Source of the DNA: Cladosporium halotolerans | Taxonomy: Eukaryota | Assembly (NCBI RefSeq): GCF_011745625.1 | Contig: NW_027191455.1 | Coordinates: forward strand, 868,001-932,000 | Length of the DNA: 64,000 nucleotides | Direction of reading: 5' to 3' | Part shown: piece by piece, positions 1,802 to 49,821 of the stretch | How the letters are laid out: each line of letters opens with the position of its first letter | How positions within the stretch are numbered: position 1 is the first letter of the stretch | Program-made: the position numbers and the translations under genes | Notes under the pieces: model-generated | The model's database searches: none | The model's input: only the letters and a program-made list of their open reading frames with translations | Told to the model about the DNA's origin: nothing

Positions 1802-4800
1802 TCAGATGCGTCTCTTCAACGTAATCATACGCCCTACAGTTGTCGCTGCGGGCAGGGCTTTGGCGAAATGGTCGCGGGCTGTGTGTCATGTCAGTGTCTG
1901 TTCAAGATCTCGAAGCGATCATGCAGAGAAACATACCTTCTTCCGAGTCAAAGCCCACAGTAATGTCATCGTGCTCCTGTGCATAATCGAGTCCTTCAAG
2001 GTTGACGAAGCGTCTCCTCGCCTTTTCCTCCACGCTGGGCTCGTCGCCCTTGGAGATCGCAGCCGGCAGCGAGAACTTCGCATCCACCATCTTCACCGCC
2101 CACTTCTTGTTCTTCCCATCGCCCTTGACGGTCTCAAAAACGTCCGTCGACTTGATCTGGAAGCAAAGCATCTCCGCGTGTGCGAAGTCTTCCATGAAAG
2201 CCAGAAGTTGGGTAACGGTGTTCTGCGCGTTAGCAACGATCTGCAGGCGAACATTGGTCGCGGTCCACTTGTGGTAGATTGGGACGACCATCCTCCGGCG
2301 TGAGATGGCGAGGGCGCTCGCGAGCCCGTCGTAGCGGACCGTGAAGCCCGTGATGGCGGTCTGGAAGGCGTGCAAGTCGTTTGGCGTGGCGAAGGTGAAA
2401 GTGCGGACCGTGGGCATCCTCTGCGCGACGTTGTAGACGTCGGTTTCGGCGTCCGCGACGTTGTGGGGCGTGTTCCGCGTGTCAATAGACATTGTCAAGT
2501 CTATCTGCGGTTGGCGGAGGATTTGCACGGCTGGGGTCTCTGTGCAAGGAAGACGGAAGAGGAGCTCGCCTTTGTCTAGATTGAGGCGGTCGGTGATGCA
2601 TCCGTGGTCGTGTCTTGCGATGATACGCAGATTCTCTGACTCGATGGTGCTCGGGAGACGCGACACTGTATCCTCGGTGAAAGTATTCGTGACTCCCAGC
2701 CTTTGCCACTGCATACCAGATAGCTCGCCTTGTCCAGGAGACGATCCATTCAGAGCATCGGCCATGGCCACGATGCTCAGACCGGTCAAGGCCATCTTGC
2801 CAACGATAGTCTCGTCCTGCCTCACATCTATTCCGTTCAGAGTATTGTGAAAGGTCTGTCGGCTCTCCATGTCTTCGAATACAAGCAGCATGCGGCACTG
2901 TTTGCGTTCCTCTCGTGTCCTGATGACCATAGCTGTCGTCCCATGAGCCGCAGCGTCCGTGATGAACTCGAAGAACAAGGGAGTCCCAACACAAAGCTCC
3001 TGGCTAAAGTTGTTCAGAGACTTGTGTCCAGACTCAGTGGCAACAGCGAGGCGGAACCCCCGGTGCTTTCTACGCACAGTGCCGCCATGCTGAGTCTCCT
3101 CAAGTCGTTCCCAGACCAGCGCACGACAATGCTTCACTTTGTCCTGCGGGAATGCATTAGGGTTCGAGGAATCCGCGTACTGCACTTCCACAAGCTTGAC
3201 CTCGTGAACCTGCACCTCGCCCCTATCAGGGCGCATGCTATGATCGATCCGACGCGAATACTCGACGAGGTTCCACAGTGAGCGGAAATCTTGTTCGAAG
3301 AAGCGCACCGTCACGTGGATGCCTCTGGGCAGGCTCACGGAAACGGCAAGTGAGCTGGCCTTCCACGATACGTCTCCCCAAGTCAGATGGCTGATGTTGC
3401 TTTGTCTAGGGGCAATTTTGAGATAGACGAGCTCATTTTGGCTTGCGATGACCACCGTACTCTGGTAGTCGCGTTTGCCTCGTAGGACTGTCAAAGTACA
3501 AGGAATCGATACGCGGTCCGTGTTCACGTCGTCGGTATTGAGGGATAGGTTGACCGTGGATCGGGTGTAATAGTGAAAATCTGCCGAATCACCAAGTGGC
3601 AGTGCTTCAGAAGGTGAAGCACTGCGCCCAGGCGAGTCGACTATCAAAGACCGTTGATCATCGGCTCCACCAAGGACGGCCGCGGCGTCCGGTGTGAATC
3701 GAGGATACTCCAGCCATATCTGAGTGTCTTGTCCTTGAATAAGCGACTGCGGTGGCGGCATGATATTGTTGCGCTGCATCGAATAGCTGAGCGACGTAAG
3801 ATGGTCCTTGAGAGTTTTATAGTCCTGCCTTAGCAATGTCTCCGCCGCGGACGGATTGCGCGCATCCGGCGGAGTTGCCTCGTCGTATCTCTCTAGAGGA
3901 TCAGTGAGCATCCAGGAAGTCTTCGCAAGGTCGACGTGCGGCTGCAACAATAATTCGCGGTGCTCAGTTTCCCTTGATCTGGCCCGTTGCTGGAGCGCTG
4001 ACTCGAGACCGATCTTGCCTCTAAGGTACCACCAATACGCAGCTCGCAGCCACATGGGTGGCGTACACCTCTCAGCTGGCTGTTCCTTCTCCGCAGTCAG
4101 TCTGAAGACGCCTTTCATGTGTGCTACGCGGCCTGCGAAATCTTCAAACGCAGCTTCCGCGGCTACATGACTGGAAGATGGAGTTTGAGCTGGTGGGGTC
4201 GGTCGGATGAAGGAGTTATTAGAGTGAGCAGAGCCAGGTCGAGAAGGCTCAGGGGGAACGAGGCTACCAGCTCGAGATCTTGACGACTGCGTCGGCGGCT
4301 GCCGCTGCACGTTGAAGTAGTCGTTCGGGCTTGGCCCACGCGCATAAGGCGACACCATAGGGACGCCAAGCTGAGATTGCGAGGAGCCGCTGTGTGCAGA
4401 GTCGTTGGGGTGGGCGGTCAGGTGAGTTGCGGTCTTGGTGGGAGCCACGGCCTGCGGCGGAGAAGATGGCGAGGTCGTTCTTGAAGGTGTCAAGTGCGGT
4501 GGTGGGGGTGGCCCCATGTCAACTGATCCCCTCTGCATGGGCTGGGGAACTATTCGATCATAGGAATGGTTGCGTGAATGTCCTCCTGTCGGCGGCGCAA
4601 ACCTGTTCAAGCTGACATTAGATCCGTTAGGTTCTCCCGCACCGCCGATTGCTGTTGGATAGCCATTGGCGTATCGAAGAGCCGATCACGGAGTGGAGAT
4701 GGGTCACGGCTGTCAGTTGCACCGCGTGATTCAGCCACCGCACGAGACGCTGGCAAAGGCCTAGCAGTGGATGGTGATAAATTCTCGCTGTCTGCCGAAT

Positions 4801-21245: not shown

Positions 21246-21766
21246 TTATTTCCCTACTCCTCTGCCCGCCACCTCGGCTGCTGCCGCTTCAGCCATGCTC
21301 TTAAGCATATGCACCACAGTCATCTCTTTCCCTTCAGGAACAAATCTTTTCAAGATGCATCAGTGAATCACTCCCCTACCATCACTCTCTTTCACGCGTC
21401 AACTCACAGATGATCATGGTAAAATCCGCTCACAGGATTAATCCCCATCCCCGCCTCCGCCAACCGCGTCGTCACCGCCGCCGTGAACCCCACCGCATCT
21501 AGACTCGACTGCACACCCAGCGTCACTTTCCGGCATGGGAACACCGCTTCTAACCCTAGCGCTGCGGCAGTCGATGGCTCGGCGATCAAGGTCCAGCCTT
21601 CGCTCTCGCGGAAGAGCATTTCGAAGGGATGCGAGCCGAGCTGTGAGGGGATTGAGGTGGTGGAATTTGGGATTGTGGCGAAGACGTAGCTGCCGGGTTG
21701 GAGGATGGGGGCCATCGATGCGATTAGGGAGGGGAGAGAGGTCGTTCCTGGGGCTTGGGCTGCCAT
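21246..21766 (-). CDS. ACT-domain protein (DUF2241-like)
   Basis: Motifs SMAPILQPGSYVF, FRESEGWTLI, SSLDAVGF and NPVSGFYHDHL|FVP, with intron 21346-21407 (GTGAGT..CTGAT..AAG). Confidence 0.85.
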
Positions 21767-23047
21767 GTCGTGCGATTCGCTGGAAGTTTGGTGGGCGGTT
21801 TTATTGGAAAGGTTGAATGATTTGTGAAAAGATCGAAGAAGAGTTATGTTGGCTTCAAAGCGCCCGTTGCAAAGGGCGTACCGTTGTAGTTGCGGTGGCC
21901 GCGGAGCCCGAGTGCTTCCACAGCTGGTTTGATAGCTTGCTGGCTGTGTCGGACTTTGCTCCACAGTACTAAGAGTACTTCGGGCAACCGTAAATCGATA
22001 TCATCTTCATGTATCGAGATTTAGGCGTTGCTGTGCATCGGTAACCCCGCTGTTGTTCGGAGGGTGCTGCTGCATTGGTTGATGAACAACCCTCTTCTAA
22101 AGCGCTGCCCTCAGGCCTACCTTCGGTTTGCCCGTTGAAGGCTGGGAAGAGATCGCTCGCTCCAGGGAATTGAGATCATGCGTTGCAGCGCGCAGTTTGG
22201 TCCTTGCGATCATGGATTCCACCGACTTCGCATTGAGATCTAGATGTTCGGCTATCTTCTTCAGCTTCACCCCCTGTTGAGAAGAGGATGCGATCGCGAC
22301 GTGGCGTTTCTAAAAAGGGATGTGAACGCCTCTTGCCATTTTGAAACTTAGCAGCTGGGTTCGATTTTGATGTGTGTCTATTCCGAAATCAAAAGAGAAC
22401 GAATACCTTATATTGCTTCCGGTTTATTGAAGAACTGGCATGACTTTGTAACCTTATGGTGACGTTGTTGGTCCCTGCTGGGCTGGTGGGAGCTCTCCGC
22501 AAACTGCACAGTCGCGTCCTTTACGATTCTTACAATGCATCGCCAACGAATCGGCACCATTACAACAGCCTTGACACGGCAGGCATCTGCAGCACAGGTG
22601 CCGACCATTTCTACTACCGCATCAGGCACCTCGGCTGGCACCCGAGGGTTTCTCGAGCATCGTGCGAGGAAGAAGCTTGAATCATTCCAAGCCCCTCGTG
22701 AACCCCTCACTGTCAGCCAAAAGATCTCCCCGCTCTCTCCGCAATGCTCCAACTCCACCACAGCTCCAACTCGCCTCGGCTCAACGACAGGCCCTCCTTG
22801 CGGCGACGCGGATGGCAGTTCGTTCCGAGATCCATACGAGGAGATGGTAGGGTTGGCAGCAATCAATAGATAAGTGGCGCTCCGCGTATCGTACTTCTTT
22901 CCTTCAGACCTGCAGATTCCCCCTGCACGCATCCTACAATACCTACGTGTCAAAGAAGCAGCCCGGTTGTTTGTTTCAGCCCCAGCTCTTTCTGTTTCTG
23001 CATTCCCAATCTCATATTCACAACTCAATTGCAGCTTATAACCAACA

Positions 23048-42756: not shown

Positions 42757-43560
42757 TTAAGCGCGGTGGCCGTGAGCGTGACGGCGGTGGACGTGCTCGG
42801 TGGGAGCAGCCTCGCGGGCGTACACGGTCTCGTACTGGGTGATGGTGACGACGTTGCCGGAGGGCTGGGCGGAGGCGCGGGTCGCGAGCGTGGTGGGCTG
42901 CACGGCAGCCTTGACCTTGGTCCAGCCACCAAGGTTGTTGAGGCTAGCCTCGGTGGAGGTGGAGGTAGCGTAGGAGGCAGGCGCGGAGGTGGCAGAGCCG
43001 CCGCTGAGGGGAGTCCAGGAGACGGTGTTGGCTTGGCTGGCGGCGGCGATAGACTGAGAGGCGGAGGCGTACAGGTCGTCGTTGAACTCCTCACCGGAGC
43101 AGAGGGTGACCATGATGTCGGAGTCGTCAGGGCAGGACTGCATGCCGTAGGCGTCGTCGTTGGCGTAGCGGTAGGCCTGCTGCTTGGGATTGCAGTCGCC
43201 GGACTCGGCGGTGATCTCCCAGTTGCCGTACCAGGGGTTGCCGTCGACCTGGCTCAGGTCGTACCAGATGATGCCGTCCTCGTGAGTGGTGTACTCGTAC
43301 TGGAGGATGTGGTCGAGGGACTCAGTGTCGGAGAGCTTGATGGACCAGCCGTTGTCGTTGGAGAGCGGGGTGTACTGCTGGGAGTAGGTCTCGTTGGGCT
43401 GGAGCCACTTGTCGATCTGCTCGTATCCACCGCCGGAGGCGGGGACGTTGCACATCTTGACCTCGTACTTGCAGGCGTTCCTGACGATGGCCTTGCCCAT
43501 GGCATTGGCGAGAGAGGCGCTGGCCAGGAGGGCCGTGGCGGTGATCATGTTGGCAACCAT
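42757..43560 (-). CDS. Secreted BYS1/thaumatin-like domain protein with Ser/Thr tail
   Basis: Signal peptide. Motifs GKAIVRNAC, GWSIKL, LQYEYT, IWYDLSQVDGNP and IMVTLC, with a His/Arg-rich end (HVHRRHAHGHRA). Confidence 0.8.
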   Translation of the reverse strand: MVANMITATALLASASLANAMGKAIVRNACKYEVKMCNVPASGGGYEQIDKWLQPNETYSQQYTPLSNDNGWSIKLSDTESLDHILQYEYTTHEDGIIWYDLSQVDGNPWYGNWEITAESGDCNPKQQAYRYANDDAYGMQSCPDDSDIMVTLCSGEEFNDDLYASASQSIAAASQANTVSWTPLSGGSATSAPASYATSTSTEASLNNLGGWTKVKAAVQPTTLATRASAQPSGNVVTITQYETVYAREAAPTEHVHRRHAHGHRA

Positions 43561-45229
43561 TTTTGCTGATTGATTGGGATCAAAGGGGTTGGATGAAGTT
43601 GGTTTGCAAGTGTCGTTGCGGCGTTGTCAAATTCAAAGTCCAAGAGAGTGAGGACTTGTTTGTTGGCGGGTGTAGAGAGTGAATGCGAGCAGCAAAAGAG
43701 TGAACTGCACAGCAGCGATGCTTTCCAGAGCAGAGATACGATTGAGAGAGCGTGACGACCAAAACAGAGAACACGCGGGACGACGAGACGGGCGCCCTAC
43801 TTATTGTCTGCACCCTTTGCGACCTCCACAGGACGTACCCTCAGCCGGCCGACACACCTCCAGGAGCGGACCCGCTCTCAGCGACTGAACCTACGTGCTG
43901 TCGTGTGCCTGGCCGCCAGACCGTCCGCGGCTTAGCCCCAGGAACCTGCCGCTCAATCACCGCAGCCTTACACCGGCCGTTGAAAAATCGACCAGGGGGG
44001 CCAGCCAGACGTTCGGCGATGCGAGCGGGTTCCTGGCGCCGTCTGCCGTCAGCGGCCGCGGCGGCGCAGGAACATGCTGCCGGGCGGCTGTGAGTGGCCA
44101 CGCAGGCGGCTGACGGGAATGTTTTTTCTGCAGGGGATCGAGCTCTTCGAACTCTCGGCCCCAACCTCGAGCCTTCTCCGCCGGCACGCCGTTTCGAACG
44201 CCTACCGCTTTTGGGCGGCCACGCACGGCCACGCACGGCCTGCCACGTTGGCAGCGCGCGCGGCCCACCGGTGCGGTAGAGGCTGCATGGCCGGCGCAGA
44301 TTCTGAGAGGGCCGGAGGAGACGCTGGCGCAGCACACCGGGTTTTCCTTCACGCGCCTGGAACGTTTGCGGGCCAAGACGCCCAAGAGCGCGGGCTCCAC
44401 GTGCGAGATGATAGCGCCGGGCGAGGGAGGGTGTCACTGCGAGGTTATTCGACTGCGCGGCGTGCCGTCCGAGGAAGAGTAAGGTAAGTTATGGAGACGC
44501 GCAAGCATGCTGGCGGCAGACAGCAGGCGGGCCGGCGACGTCGACGGCACAGATCGAGCGATTGACGGGTGCCTCAGTGCGCGAGGATCGCCGCGCCCAC
44601 GGAGCAACTTCCAGCAGTTCGGCGCGGCCCCCTGCCTGCCTGTTGGGTCTGCCGCAGGCTTGGACGCGCGCTGATTGGAGCGCATTCGGCACACATGCAA
44701 CAGGTGGCTTTGGCGAGCACATGTGAGAAAAGTGAGAAAAAAGCCCCCCCTGCAGTGCATGAAGCGCAGGGGGCCTCTTTCTCACACTGCATGAAGCGTA
44801 GGGGCGCCATGGGCGACAGCTGCTGCGCGGTGGCTTGGTTGAGCTTTCCACTCGGCAGTCCACGTCGCAGCCGGGTGGCGGTCGCGCAGCCCACACGCAT
44901 CGCGCACCGCGGCCGAAGTGCTCGCATGGTGCAGCGCGTCGCACGACAGATGGGCCGGCAGCCGGCGAGCGGTGGAGCGGGTGCCTCGCGATACGAAGTG
45001 TGTGCCTGCGATCCCGTTGAGGGCGGGCCTGGCAGGCTCAGTCGGGCATACGTAGGCGCGGCTCAGCCCAGAGTCCAGACCTCGCCCTCTGCTTGACTCG
45101 CTCGCTCGCGTGCGGACAATGACGACGTTGTGCTCTAGTGCATGGCGCGCCGTTCGCCGTTGGACATGTGCACGGCGCCGAAAAGTCGACAACGCCCAAG
45201 GGCTCGGCGGGTGTGGTTCGGTTGACGAT

Positions 45230-46750
45230 GCGACGCTGTGACGCCGAAGCAGTCGCGAGCGTTTCCGTCGCACGACGAGCGCCGTCAGATGGGATGTCGA
45301 ATTTGTGTGCGACGAGAAAACTCGGCACAGAACTGTCGATGACAGATGAAGGATCCCCACCCCGTGCGGATCACCGTTGCACGGGAGCTGATCATCGCTG
45401 CTCGATCGGGCAGCCGTCCGCAAGGCATATCCTGAAAGCACACCCTGCTCTCGCGTGTGTTGCAGGGAGCGCCGCCGCAAGAGGTTCTCTCATGGGTAAG
45501 CTTATTTGTGCGACTTTCGAGCTGAGCGCAAATACATTATCGCATTCGTGTTATCGGCCTTGCGCTCGACGGCCCGCGGCGAAGATTGGGTTGACGTGCC
45601 GAGTTTGCCCGCAATAATCAAATGCCCTCCGCGACGGCAGCCCTGTGTACGCTCCCACCAACCTCACCTGTCGTTGCCTCGGTTTCAATGAGACATACAT
45701 GCACGCTAGCGAGTCCAGACCTCTGTCCTGTCGGTCTGCGCTCTGCGTTGTGTGGGCTGTGTTCTTGGGCGCCGCCTTGCGCCCGACGACCACTAGGATC
45801 ATTCCCTTTGGCGGGGCCACGGTCGGCGCAAACAACGCATAGGAACGTCAATAGTCTCCTGCGAAATTGCGAAGGTCTGTGGGAGCGAAGAAGGTATTTC
45901 GAATCATCAGTATTCGTTCAGACGGTGTGAGTCACGACGCACGACGGCCTTTCACCGCAATGCTGCCGTCTCCCTCAGACATGACGATCTGGTGTTCGTC
46001 GTGCTCGACGAGTGCCTCAGTCGGTAATTGTTACCCTCGATTCGTTGATTGGTCTCAATTTGTGTCTGGCCGTCATGTCTTGTAAAAATGGCGCCTATTG
46101 TTTCGTTCGTGTAGCATGTCGCTCAACGATTCCACACGGCGTCCCGTGATCGAACTCAAAGAAACGATCGTTTCAATCGTCGTGTTGACCAAACAACCAT
46201 TCGGAGGGTGAATCCTGTGCCAACGCCAGTCGATGAAAATGGAATTTCCATGATGTTTGAATATGACTTCGTCTTGTGTGCGATTTTTTTGGTTGGCATT
46301 GTTTGTGGCATTCACCTGAGTGGTCAACATCCATGTTTCGAATTGCTTGACTAGTGACAACCCCCGATCCACCTTTCAAAAGCTGTCCTCGTCTCCTACC
46401 TATTGCATACATAACACGCCAACCAAGGGTTGTCGAAAGCCATCGTGACCTTAAATTTATAGTCACCACAGGGACGAAAGGGGCAGTAAAAAGACCTTCA
46501 AAACGAAGCGCTTTCACTGGGCGGAAATCGCGCCGGGGTTGTCAGGGTTAGGATTGGGGTAGCACACCTCGCGCATCGACTCCCACAAATCGCTACCTAT
46601 CGTTACACAATCAAAACCCGATCGTTTCCAACACGATACGTACAAAACAGCGCAGAGACAATCCGGTAGAACAGAACAGGCAACTCCGAACCGCCAGCCC
46701 CGTCTGCGCCGCAGGGTCTTCCATTCATCGCGGAGCCGAACAGCACATGT
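45230..46750 (-). ncRNA. Candidate long structured ncRNA, possibly telomerase RNA (ends uncertain)
   Basis: No credible ORF. At least ten 7-11 bp inverted-repeat helices, several nested. G-U-compatible extensions favour the minus strand. CCTAACCCT(GA) at 46552-46544 lies directly 3' of a hairpin. Confidence 0.45.
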
Positions 46751-47679
46751 CAACGTGACGAGCCACGAACTCATCTGACCTCGCCTCTCATCCACCCACA
46801 ACTCATCCCAGCCACTCCGAATACCGATAGCCCTACAGCAGCACGCCCACCTGATGTCAACTTTACGCCGCCATAATCCCTGCCCTCGCTCGCATCACCC
46901 TTCAGTCATCTGACCCAACCCGCCAAACCCCGCCAAGCAGTCGCAGTCGCAGTCGCAGTCGCCCGCGCGGCTTGCCCGCCCGACTCCCCAAGCGACGCCA
47001 GAAGCAAGAAACCCATGCCATGCCATGCCATGCCCTGTCCTACCCAGTGCTATCATCCCGATAGCAACGAATCCCTAGCACCCGGTACAGTACATACAGT
47101 AAGACGCGCCAGCTCCCCCAGCGCGCCGGCCGGATTCCTCTTCCCCCGCATTTCCCCATGCCAGACCAAAAGCAAATCCCACGAGGAGCCCGCAAACCTT
47201 CCCTTCCCTTCCCTTTTCCCTTCCCTTGGCTCACCCCCGCTTCGCGAACCAGTCCTGTCCCTGCTACGCCGCGATCCTTCGACTTCCGTTCCGCGTGGCA
47301 GGGCAGGGTCAGCTCGCATGACCTGTTGTAGACATCCGGCCCAGAAGACGGGCGAGGCGAGGCCGGGAGGCGCGGGAGGGCAGGGCGTTGCGGCCGTGAA
47401 AGGTTCGGGGATTGGGGGAGGGAGTGAGGGGTATTGCGGCGTAAGAGGTAGGTAGGTAGATAGGTACCTGGCCGGCGGACGGGCTATTTATGAGGGAGTG
47501 AGGGGACGAGGAGGGGAATGAGGGTGGTTTCGTTTCCTTTGTCTAGTTACTTTGTCGTTGGTCCTCTATCTTTGCTGTGAGATTGTGCCTGTGCTGGGAC
47601 ATTGATGTTGTGATATTTACGCTTGAGCGGAGCTTCCTATCAATCAGAGAATACGCGAGCCACGGCGAAACGAACAGCT

Positions 47680-48996
47680 ATGGCTTCGGAGAAGATGATG
47701 AACGCCGTGCGCTTCCACGGCCGCGAGGACCTGCGCTTCGAGCGCGTGCCGGAGCCCGAGTGTGGGAAGGGCCAGGTCAAGGTCCGGCCTGCGTGGTGCG
47801 GGATTTGTGGAAGGGTAAGCTCGGCGCCTTTGGGTTGAGATGACAGTGTGTCAGAAACTAATCTAAGCACGCAGTTGGTCTAGAGCCCTGGTACAGATGA
47901 AACGACGCAACATGCTAACTCCCCTCCGGCGACCTGCACGAGTTCCTAGGCGGACCTTCGCTCTGTCCGACCACGCCGCACCCGGTTACGGGAGAGACTA
48001 TTCCGTTGACGTTCGGACATGAGTTCAGCGGTACGATTGAGGAGGTGGGCGAGGGCGTGTCGGAGAGCGTTGCGGTTGGAGACAGGGTGTGCGTACAGCC
48101 GATCATATACGATGGGACGTGCGGATCTTGCGAGGAGGGACTGATCAACTGCTGTGATAACAATGGATTTGTGGGGTTGAGTGGTAAGTGATGTCGTGTG
48201 CGACAGACTGAGCTTTGCTGACACTGGGTAGGCTGGGGCGGAGGGCTTTCTGAGAAGGTCGTCGTGCCGGAGTATTGCATTGTCAAGATCCCAGACAACG
48301 TGCCTCTGGACGTTGCAGGTGAGCTCTTCGACATAACCCATCACTTACCTAGTCGACTCTAACCTGACTCCTTCAGCGCTCGTCGAACCGCTCTCAGTCG
48401 GCTGGCACGCAGTCAGCATCTCCCCCTTCCAGGTCGGCGACTCAGCACTTGTTCTAGGAGGCGGCCCCATCGGCCTCTCTGTCATCCAAGCGCTCAAGGC
48501 GCGCGGCTGCGACAAGATCATCGTGTCCGAGGTATCATCCATGCGCAAGCAGTACGCGGCAGACTTCGGCGCACACCACGTGCTGGACCCGACGAAAGAC
48601 GATATCGTAGCCAAGTGCCGCGAGCTGTGTGACGGCAAAGGCGCACACGTCTGCTTCGACGCCGCGGGCGTGCAGGCTGCTCTCGACCAGGCCGTCAAAG
48701 CCGTGCGAGCTCGCGGCACGGTCGTGAACATCGCGATCTGGGAGAAGCCGTTCACGCTCCAGCCAAACGACATGATCTTCCGCGAGCGCAAGTGGGTGGC
48801 TACTGCAACGTACCAGAAGGGCGACTTTCAGGAGGTGCTGGCTGCCATCTCCTCGGGCGGCATGGAGAATGTGGAGAACATGATCACCAAGAAGATCGGC
48901 CTTGACGAGGTCGTCGAGCAGGGATTCAGGGCGCTGGTCAAGGACAAGGACAGGCAGGTCAAGATCCTGGTGCGCGCAGGGTCTGGAGAGACGTGA
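47680..48996 (+). CDS. Zinc-dependent MDR dehydrogenase, (2R,3R)-butanediol dehydrogenase-like
   Basis: Motifs WCGICG(S)DLHEF, GHEFSG, ALVEPLSVGWHAV, GGGPIG, FDAAG and VKILV. Complex first intron 47814-47929; further introns 48184-48231 and 48319-48376. Confidence 0.88.
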
Positions 48997-49821
48997 GGGT
49001 GTTTGGCCCCAAGGATGCTAGTGTAGCTACTGCGACTTTCGATGGGTAGGCAGGCACGTGTATGCCATTACGGATCAGAAGAACAGAGCAGATCTGGTGG
49101 CCGTGTCCACGATTAAGATGTCTTCCATGAGGCCGATTCGAGCTATTGTCTAACAGAGTTGGCGCGATGATGTCGATGTAAACACGCGAATGCACAGAGA
49201 GGAAGGTGGTGATGGCACTGTACCAGTGGGCTCTGGGTTGCTACAAAGTCAATTGTCCAAGTTTCGTGGGGCCTAGCCAAAACGAGCCGTGCGGTTTCGT
49301 CGTCATCGCGGTGCGTATACCAGGCAGGGGGCGATCACGGGCACGCAGGCGGCTATCGGGTCGCCCAAAAGGTGCAACGCTTCTCGCGATAGACGCGCTC
49401 GATGGGGGTGTGGCTGAGGCCGTCACAACCTTGCGCCGTCTACGTACCGCATAGCGCGTTGGGTGAAATGAGGATTCTCGGCGGCGCAGGCGTGCGGGAG
49501 AAGTCTGGCAGTGGTGGCAGTGGCCGTGCTGTGCTGGCCGTGGCCGTGACTGGCGCTCCGCCTTGTTCGCCCAGTCCCTGGCCCGCCTGGCGCGAGCGAC
49601 GTCATCGGTCTGTGACCCAAAAGGCCTGCTGCGCAAGCGCACGCTCGCACGCGCCTCGTTATTAAACTGCGCCGTTTCACCCCAACAGCCTTGCAACACC
49701 CGCATCCTGCACTTACTCTCGTCGACCTGCGAAAAAGGTCCCATACATTGGTTTTGACCTCACCTCCTGCGACAGCACTCTTGCCACACGCCACGCACAC
49801 CCTTACACTACACCTTCCACC

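Follow-up and report, generated by a model that had tools for sequence, protein, structure and literature searches.

The window analyzed here, a 64,000-nucleotide stretch of Cladosporium halotolerans DNA, likely contains a gene for telomerase RNA (TER) on its minus strand, running from ~47.2 kb to between 45.0 and 43.8 kb, with the template at positions 46552-46544. The locus is probably a divergent TER of the Pezizomycotina type. Its candidate template, 5'-CCUAACCCU-3', is selected as a contiguous telomeric run and is located in transcribed DNA free of convincing open reading frames (ORFs). The original prediction had proposed this template from the motif together with an adjoining hairpin and a long-range helix, and a re-reading of the sequence recovered the motif and its complementary segments at those minus-strand positions. 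The idea of a telomerase template stood in that position and strand are kept in all 7 of the syntenic relatives that could be judged and in that the DNA is transcribed; it did not stand in its structural context, which was meant to carry the argument and has no weight. Conservation in relatives carries the argument instead. By itself, a nine-nucleotide match with plausible hairpins has no value; the matter was settled by synteny with a neighboring protein gene.

A telomeric run is kept at the syntenic position in relatives

Using the largest exon of the neighboring alcohol dehydrogenase (ADH) gene as an anchor, we fetched 80 related metagenome loci with their flanks, 525 kb in total. Seven close loci (L002, L004, L008, L009, L010, L019 and L066) combine an ADH identity of at least 88% (88-90%) with enough upstream flank to be judged; they amount to 5 distinct sequences, as L009 and L010 are essentially the same and L019 equals L066. 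Seven further close loci (L001, L003, L005, L006, L007, L011 and L012) have too little upstream flank for this purpose. Within the close group the gene order from the Bys1-family gene to ADH is preserved, and each of the 7 judgeable loci has, on the same strand and 1.5-2.2 kb upstream of its ADH match, a telomeric C-strand run, (CCCTAA)n, of 10-18 nt (Table 1). Runs of at least 13 nt are found only at the syntenic place within the 525 kb, while sites of at least 9 nt number 25 against ~24 computed for random sequence, so that telomere-like words are not generally enriched.

The DNA around the run does not share this retention. Comparison of the window with the close group by blastn gave matches in the Bys1-proximal region (43600-44290) and in ADH exon 1 (47680-47820), with none across 44290-47680. 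Identity between L008 and L009 is at noise level (39-47%) from -600 to -1 and reaches 68-95% further downstream. From -700 to +900 around the motif, AACCCTAACC is the only 10-mer common to at least 4 of the 5 lineages; three 7-mers are common to all five, and among these CCTAACC, which is of telomeric type, alone extends to longer shared words. No neighboring conserved words were found over this interval in the five lineages, and a global MAFFT alignment of 8 sequences was too poor for use. The template is thus kept at 7 of 7 loci while the rest of the region diverges, which is the pattern looked for in a Pezizomycotina telomerase RNA. Because it is retained in relatives whose flanks are saturated, the motif is neither a chance occurrence nor a neutrally decaying relic, and it is an island under purifying selection, acting on it as a contiguous telomeric run.

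The invariance of CUAACCCU across relatives that had been anticipated fails literally, since one lineage reads AACCCUAACC and then GC (in L066 the same run is preceded by CCCC). All lineages nevertheless keep at least 9 contiguous telomeric nucleotides, and this is what a template requires. The synteny is confined to the close group: the long upstream flanks of L041 (ADH 81%) and L030 (60%) contain no telomeric 8-mer and 9-mer, respectively, and no homology to the Bys1 side. The conserved 3' domain described below was not found in the other 73 loci. In the window, the template is predicted to lie in the top 0.3% of 9-nt stretches within +/-500 nt for openness. Among the 5 lineages for which the template itself was scored, 4 are predicted to have it unusually open (top 0.3-3.8%), with L066 in the top 20%; the effect is due in part to base composition. 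For L002, which is outside these 5, the scored stretch was offset by a few bases from the template and ranked in the top 5.5%.

The candidate template lies in transcribed DNA

The motif sits within a gap of ~3.8 kb, without a convincing ORF, between the transcript ends of the Bys1-family and ADH genes; the lowest ADH mRNA contig end (47529) is ~980 nt away from it and the Bys1 start 2.8 kb. None of the 64 ORFs of at least 40 aa in this gap proved conserved by tblastn, which returned only weak matches, in multiple frames and on both strands, inside a conserved DNA block; the one ORF tried in Pfam belonged to no family.

Transcription of the gap is documented by run X3, an RNA run in which the ADH contig skips 47813-47928 and shows a second joint (48315/48374) with GT..AG ends. 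Genomic DNA is not detectable in this run, as exon cover alone accounts for the mean depth of 7.66 in the bin around intron 1. Its contigs in the gap cover 46502-47179 across the motif (depth 6.2), 45696-46070 (5.5) and, in two overlapping pieces, 43750-44129 and 44113-44448 (7.9-9.0); for comparison, depth is 20-36 over ADH and 571 over Bys1, by far the deepest feature. A soil metatranscriptome from another study (X12) contributes a contig at 45296-45449 with zero differences, which shows presence only, because this run was selected for holding that stretch. Stretches of 43400-49100 without X3 or X12 contigs, such as 46074-46455 and 45501-45691, are uninformative. With no conserved ORF and RNA contigs from 2 studies, the locus has the properties of a long non-coding transcript. 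The contig end at 47179 is unreliable as its 5' limit, since the adjoining GGGAAG-rich tract was skipped as a repeat when reads were placed.

Two further runs, X2 and X21, are apparently DNA or mixed and were used for variation only. In X2, the arm just 3' of the template is replaced by unalignable sequence (Table 1), while both flanks of the same contig align at 89-93%. The putative 5' part of the transcript contains microsatellites, namely (GACTGC)4 at 46937-46960, the length of which varies in X21, (CATGG)4 at 47013-47032 and the GGGAAG-rich tract at 47190-47231. A long, near-perfect minus-strand hairpin at 44726-44790 (GUGAGAAAGAGGCCCCCUGC...GCAGGGGGGGCUUUUUUCUCAC) is rearranged in X2 contigs (joints 44725 to 44789 and 44749 to 44788) and is therefore unstable among close strains.

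Proposed action of the template

If the locus is a TER, its minus-strand transcript would bind TERT, and the telomeric 3' end (...AGG) would pair with the 3' CCU of the template. TERT would then copy C-A-A-U-C-C, adding GTTAGG; copied 3' to 5', the template as a whole would yield AGGGTTAGG. Copying would have to stop at C46552 or C46551, since the adjoining base, U46553, would add a non-telomeric A to the product, and a boundary element is presumed to halt it there. The product would realign for the next round. The conserved AUAAGU, 2.75 kb downstream, is where the 3' end of the RNA may be formed.

Structural context of the template

The template-boundary hairpin put forward originally pairs, on the minus strand, GAUUG (46612-46608) and GGUAGC (46597-46592) with GCUACC (46563-46558) and CAAUC (46556-46552). 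The minimum free energy fold of 46530-46660 includes this two-part hairpin, at -36.5 kcal/mol against a shuffle mean of -37.15 (z = +0.18), and 112 of the 200 shuffles reach or exceed that stability. Every lineage can form some hairpin upstream of the template, none of which is alignable across clades, and the compensatory changes that had been expected in the flanking hairpin were not found among the relatives. In L004 a 6-bp hairpin lies 4 nt upstream of the template; by our reading of the alignment it is weakened in L002 rather than covarying. An alifold analysis of L004 and L002 gave a covariation term of -6.25 with 3 compensatory pairs and 0 broken, which we did not count because it involves two sequences only and has no shuffle control.

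The proposed core-enclosing helix joins CGUAUCGUGUUG (46640-46629) to 45553-45541 through 12 bp with one bulge. At -13.2 kcal/mol this pairing falls short of -15.0 kcal/mol, the median for the best long-range partners of 66 twelve-mers sampled across 46760-46553, and the same 12-mer finds a better partner elsewhere, near 44914 (-14.7). The core-enclosing region does not align among the relatives. With a hairpin that folds no better than shuffled sequence and a helix below the median partner, the structural context adds nothing to the case for a template.

Telomerase RNA elements and the 3' end

A number of observations weigh against a TER at this locus. No canonical TER element, be it boundary helix, pseudoknot or P6/P6.1, is demonstrated, and the boundary hairpin has no conserved or covarying counterpart in the relatives. 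The RNA contigs carry neither transcript ends nor, more to the point here, strand. TTAGGG is the presumed telomere repeat of the species, in line with a statement in PMC4993307 that most filamentous fungi use TTAGGG repeats; neither the window nor the fetched loci contain telomeric arrays. The ancestral form of the element, ACCC(C/U)AACCCUAACCCUA, appears to come close to three repeats, and a template of that length would be long.

The searches for known elements add to these points. Passages of Qi et al. (2012, PMC3592445) describe the Neurospora crassa TER with a template, a boundary element, two core-enclosing helices, PK1/PK2/PK2.1 and P6/P6.1, the last being a 4-bp stem with an NUNGN loop ~190 nt from the 3' end. 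For Aspergillus TERs, passages of PMC3603654 and PMC4299874 give an 8-bp boundary helix, a U-rich CS3, an A-rich CS4, a compact three-way junction (TWJ), a U-rich tract, AUAAGU and GCUAACU. Rfam gave no match on the window at the gathering score and no telomerase family at E <= 10 on 43600-47900 or on the five relatives; the only matches at E <= 10 are at chance level, one of the 44790-44726 hairpin to mir-2058 (E = 2.2) and one to a viral pseudoknot (E = 2.7). Rfam probably includes an ascomycete TER model. Aspergillus TER words, among them CS4, TWJ/P6.1, core-enclosing and template-flank words, were sought with up to 20% mismatch. The longer ones (13-22 nt) were absent except for two single-sequence matches, namely the core-enclosing word (13 nt) in the window, where it falls within the hypervariable arm at +270, and the template-flank word, which L002 has at its own template. 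The three shortest words (8-10 nt) have scattered near-matches in several sequences at non-homologous places.

No pseudoknot was found, and no arrangement of U and A runs is common to all lineages; L008 and L009 could form U:A-rich helices around +920..+1030, as could the conserved island at 45312-45258, where a 4-bp mini-stem has C-G, U-A and U-G variants among lineages. A P6.1-like hairpin (Table 1) has a non-consensus loop in the window and no conserved P6. Its counterparts in L066, L008 and L009, CGGC-RUAGG-GCUG, fit the 4-bp stem and NUNGN loop and lie ~165-190 nt upstream of AUAAGU, which is the right geometry, and a P6 hairpin precedes them in L008 and L009 only. Another P6.1 candidate, GAUC-CUAGU-GGUC followed by GUC at ~45800, occurs in the window only and is not conserved. 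RNAalifold on the 3' domain gave an unfavorable covariation term (+4.8) with 7 of 122 pairs compensatory, and an RNAz-like windowed scan of structure conservation index (SCI) and z-score, comparing L008 with L009 on both strands, gave no structural signal. Neither the P6.1 descriptor scans and the listing of U and A runs nor RNAalifold (3' domain and conserved island, island 4) and the SCI/z scan yielded a convincing conserved structure. Separately, we observed a conserved nested hairpin with repeated CAUUGU/ACAAUG words (CACGGC...GCACAAUGGGCAUUGUACAAUG...GCCGUG) at ~+366..+419 after the template in L009 and ~+671..+723 in L066, and also in L008. Its middle helix is apparently changed on both sides in L066 (UUAAC/GUUAA), and while it is present in both relative clades, it is not recognizable in the window.

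The DNA downstream of the template tells in the same direction, in that its conservation rises towards Bys1 and includes ACGT-core palindromes, as a promoter would. L008 and L009 are 58-94% identical over the conserved 3' domain, and in the 700 nt of it nearest to Bys1 conservation between the two is similar to that of the Bys1 coding region. The invariant blocks include CACGTGGAG (~44392) and CTCTACCGCA, with ACGT-core words typical of promoters, and the palindromes are CACGTG at 44392 and TACGTA at 45050. The domain could be the 3' domain of a TER, a promoter/enhancer of Bys1, or both; similarly, the block at 45045-45057 is a near-palindrome and could equally be a bZIP-type site acting at the DNA level.

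The AUAAGU that closes the domain is open to two readings as well. The four full-length lineages (the window, L066, L008 and L009) each have exactly one AUAAGU after the template, at a homologous place, 2748 nt from it in the window and 2278-2403 nt in the relatives. AUAAGU is said, in passages that cite 2015 work by Qi and colleagues, to be general in Pezizomycotina, and parts of PMC3603654 and PMC4299874 describe it as the 5' splice site at which the spliceosome cleaves Aspergillus TERs to form their 3' ends. The block lies 62 nt upstream of the mRNA 5' end of Bys1, which is a hard end, as the X3 contig stops at 43742 against adapter sequence; an equal reading of the block (ATAAGTAGG) is thus a TATA-like box of Bys1. 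No conserved branch site follows AUAAGU in the window, where the branch-like YURAY words of the relatives (UUGAC/UUGAU) are replaced by UUGGU. Provided that the locus is a TER, a 3' end at AUAAGU is a serious possibility that falls somewhat short of an even chance. The 3' boundary would be either 43805, for a TER of ~2.9-3.4 kb, or an unrecognized site further upstream. Two other candidate 5' splice sites were rejected. AUAAGC at 45505 is not conserved (L066 has AUCAGA), and GUAUGC in the invariant block at 45050, an S. pombe-type site, is only ~5 nt from its CUCAAC branch word in L008 and L009, a spacing too short for an intron, and no joint occurs there in the read contigs.

Alternative explanations

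Within the window alone, neither the motif nor the structures exceed chance, and the simplest alternative is an intergenic nine-mer that happens to lie beside equally fortuitous hairpins. The nine-mer CCTAACCCT occurs once where 0.18 copies are expected in 64 kb, and 17 of 100 shuffles contain at least one. When all six permutations are considered the window holds two telomere-like nine-mers, and it holds 10 eight-mers of telomeric type against ~12 computed for random sequence. The second nine-mer, CTAACCCTA at 21550-21558 on the plus strand, lies within a coding-looking ORF (21404-22000, minus strand) and is clearly a chance occurrence. Set against this are five independent sequences in which 10-18 nt of the repeat persist at the homologous place, on the same strand, amid unalignable surroundings, a retention that makes a chance origin of the motif extremely improbable.

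The main rival is that the motif serves as a DNA site for a telomere-repeat-binding factor of the Myb type (Tbf1/Teb1-like), either in an ADH-Bys1 regulatory region or in the promoter of an unrelated long non-coding RNA (lncRNA). Tbf1/Teb1-like factors use TTAGGG-like promoter sites in ascomycetes, and such a site would be consistent with an ancestral element resembling 2.5-3 tandem repeats, with the promoter-type palindromes at 44392 and 45050 in the conserved DNA downstream, and with the fact that TER structure was not found. A Myb-type site, however, requires a fixed core, while a template requires contiguity in any register. The window copy, read on the minus strand between AAU and GA, contains no complete CCCUAA/TTAGGG hexamer, and hence no intact core, yet it keeps 9 contiguous telomeric nucleotides. 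ADH exon 1 is 0.77-1.5 kb away from the motif and the Bys1 start more than 2.2 kb, and the motif is within a stretch that is transcribed; no conserved sites neighbor it, no snoRNA or other Rfam RNA is nearby, and the 525 kb of loci show no excess of telomere-like nine-mers. The run is trimmed differently among lineages (9-18 nt) but always to at least 9 contiguous nucleotides, which favors a template over a binding site of fixed register. We consider the binding site unlikely.

A selected role within an lncRNA or regulatory transcript of the Bys1 or ADH locus, unrelated to telomerase, for instance as a decaying interstitial telomeric tract retained for regulation, strikes us as less probable still. 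Low-level transcription across the whole gap up to the Bys1 start, conservation that is strongest beside Bys1 and the lack of TER hallmarks would all fit. A neutral relic is excluded, though, given that the run is kept between saturated flanks, and we know of no lncRNA function that needs at least 9 contiguous nucleotides of the telomeric C-strand in any register. The arrangement of a same-strand template with a long non-coding body downstream resembles TER genes as described in parts of PMC3592445 and PMC3603654.

The TER interpretation itself has a bolder version, which we regard as doubtful. It holds that the RNA is a giant TER of ~2.9-3.4 kb, that its body extends as far as the very highly expressed Bys1 gene, that the AUAAGU cleavage site and the Bys1 core promoter share ~100 bp, and that the template in the window is a minimal one of 8-9 nt, compared with 13-18 nt in the relatives.

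Neighboring genes and feature coordinates

The window is ascomycete DNA. The nearest Atlas clusters to its DUF7611-7614 protein are from Ascomycota, and Pfam domains among its proteins include ENTH, Mob1, Rhp7-type and GH63-type domains. Coordinates of the features discussed here are collected in Table 1.

Intron 1 of the ADH gene (47813-47929, plus strand; 116 nt as skipped in X3) lacks GT..AG ends in the window. It has GTAAGC from 47815 and a GCTAAC branch word at 47914-47919, with no AG before the acceptor (...CTCCGG/CGACC). The cause may be an error in the assembly or a difference between strains, or the intron itself may be unusual. The L041 locus (3743-4726, ADH 81%) has no first intron where the window has one and no telomeric motif in the 3.7 kb upstream; this may be due to intron loss, a cDNA-like contig or a paralogue.

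Table 1. Candidate TER features and neighboring genes in the window, with the telomeric runs of relatives.
Feature	Position	Strand	Remarks
Candidate template	46544..46552	minus	5'-CCUAACCCU-3', 1.5 repeats, complementary to TTAGGG
Candidate TER transcription unit, largest extent	43805..47179	minus	ends uncertain; RNA contig end above, conserved AUAAGU below
Two-part hairpin GAUUG/CAAUC around GGUAGC/GCUACC	46552..46612	minus	adjoins template; possible template-boundary element, unverified
Hypervariable arm just 3' of template	46130..46385	minus	256 letters replaced by 259 unalignable in X2
Conserved island (island 4)	45258..45312	minus	hairpin UCGCAC...CCAUCUGAC...GUGCGA
Block GCCUACGUAUGCC	45045..45057	minus	core CCUACGUAUGC invariant in four full-length lineages; near-palindrome
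Conserved non-coding domain	43805..44647	minus	~850 nt, 64-67% identical to L066, L008 and L009; invariant blocks of at least 10 nt
P6.1-like hairpin CGGU-GUAAG-GCUG	43963..43975	minus	window loop has A where consensus needs G
Invariant AUAAGU	43799..43804	minus	block AUAAGUAGG closing conserved domain; possible non-canonical 5' splice site for TER 3'-end cleavage
Bys1-family gene	42757..43742	minus	ORF 42757-43626; Pfam PF04681, E = 4.9e-21; mRNA 5' end 43742
Zinc-dependent ADH gene	47529..48996	plus	synteny anchor; Pfam PF00107, E = 4.1e-32; spliced X3 contigs
Telomeric run, L002			ACCCTAACCCTAACCCTA, 18 nt
Telomeric run, L004			AACCCTAACCCTA, 13 nt
Telomeric run, L008			AACCCTAACCCTA, 13 nt
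Telomeric run, L009/L010			AACCCTAACCCTA, 13 nt
Telomeric run, L019/L066			AACCCTAACC, 10 nt

Comparison with known systems

Telomerase RNAs evolve fast and usually escape annotation, and the present locus is invisible both to Rfam and to comparison with Aspergillus motifs. A syntenic template marked by selection provides a concrete TER candidate in a fungal group without an annotated TER in the data examined, and its five orthologues offer a basis for working out the as yet unrecognized pseudoknot and CR4/5.

One close likeness is to the N. crassa TER (NcrTER), which according to passages of PMC3592445 has a 9-nt, 1.5-repeat template for TTAGGG in an RNA of 2049 nt, with a minimal template-pseudoknot (T-PK) fragment of nt 225-1515, of which nt 463-1288 are deletable. 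The candidate shares with it the 9-nt, 1.5-repeat template, the form of a very long non-coding RNA of the RNA polymerase II type, a template hundreds of nucleotides from the 5' end, a large dispensable or hypervariable arm after the template, and the lack of a canonical Sm site. The registers differ, 5'-UAACCCUAA-3' in NcrTER and 5'-CCUAACCCU-3' here, in a comparison made by published description and not by sequence. If its 3' end is at AUAAGU the candidate would measure at least 2.8 kb and exceed every TER of the N. crassa paper (PMC3592445), the largest of which is given as 2425 nt. With Aspergillus TERs, as portrayed in parts of PMC3603654 and PMC4299874, it has in common an intergenic transcribed locus, a vertebrate-type template found by conservation between relatives and an AUAAGU near the 3' end. 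It differs in that every Aspergillus template described there holds CCCUAA, which is absent from the window copy and present in its relatives, and in that nothing conserved here corresponds to their 8-bp boundary helix, which lies 2 nt from the template; nor does a U-rich tract precede AUAAGU or a GCUAACU branch site follow it. The gap of ~3.8 kb between transcript ends is the right size for a TER.

Telobox and Tbf1/Teb1 promoter elements are likewise short, interstitial TTAGGG-like runs conserved in non-coding DNA. Their usual position is no more than a few hundred bp from a start site, and they depend on a fixed core; the candidate, by contrast, lies in transcribed DNA distant from coding starts, and what it preserves is contiguity, not register. 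The template of mouse telomerase RNA is CUAACCCU, likewise shortened and with a minimal alignment region, and offers a precedent that 8-9 nt can suffice, although that RNA is a vertebrate H/ACA RNA of a few hundred nucleotides and not a relative. Mouse telomerase is described in Qi et al. (2012, PMC3592445, in part) as non-processive owing to its shortened template.

The Ustilago maydis TER (UmTER), in the passages of Logeswaran et al. (2022, PMC9564094) that concern it, is processed from the Emi1 mRNA and lies in its 3' untranslated region (UTR). A coupling to a protein-coding unit may be shared, since RNA contigs reach to within 8 nt of the Bys1 mRNA start; unlike UmTER, the candidate is situated upstream of its neighbor, and the Bys1 mRNA begins at a sharp 5' end of its own. 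Should the 3' end prove to be the AUAAGU beside Bys1, this would be the largest TER known, with a non-coding RNA processing site that overlaps a strong promoter. For such a giant TER, the biogenesis of telomerase RNA would be coupled to a protein-coding unit in a manner unlike the 3'-UTR arrangement of Ustilago.

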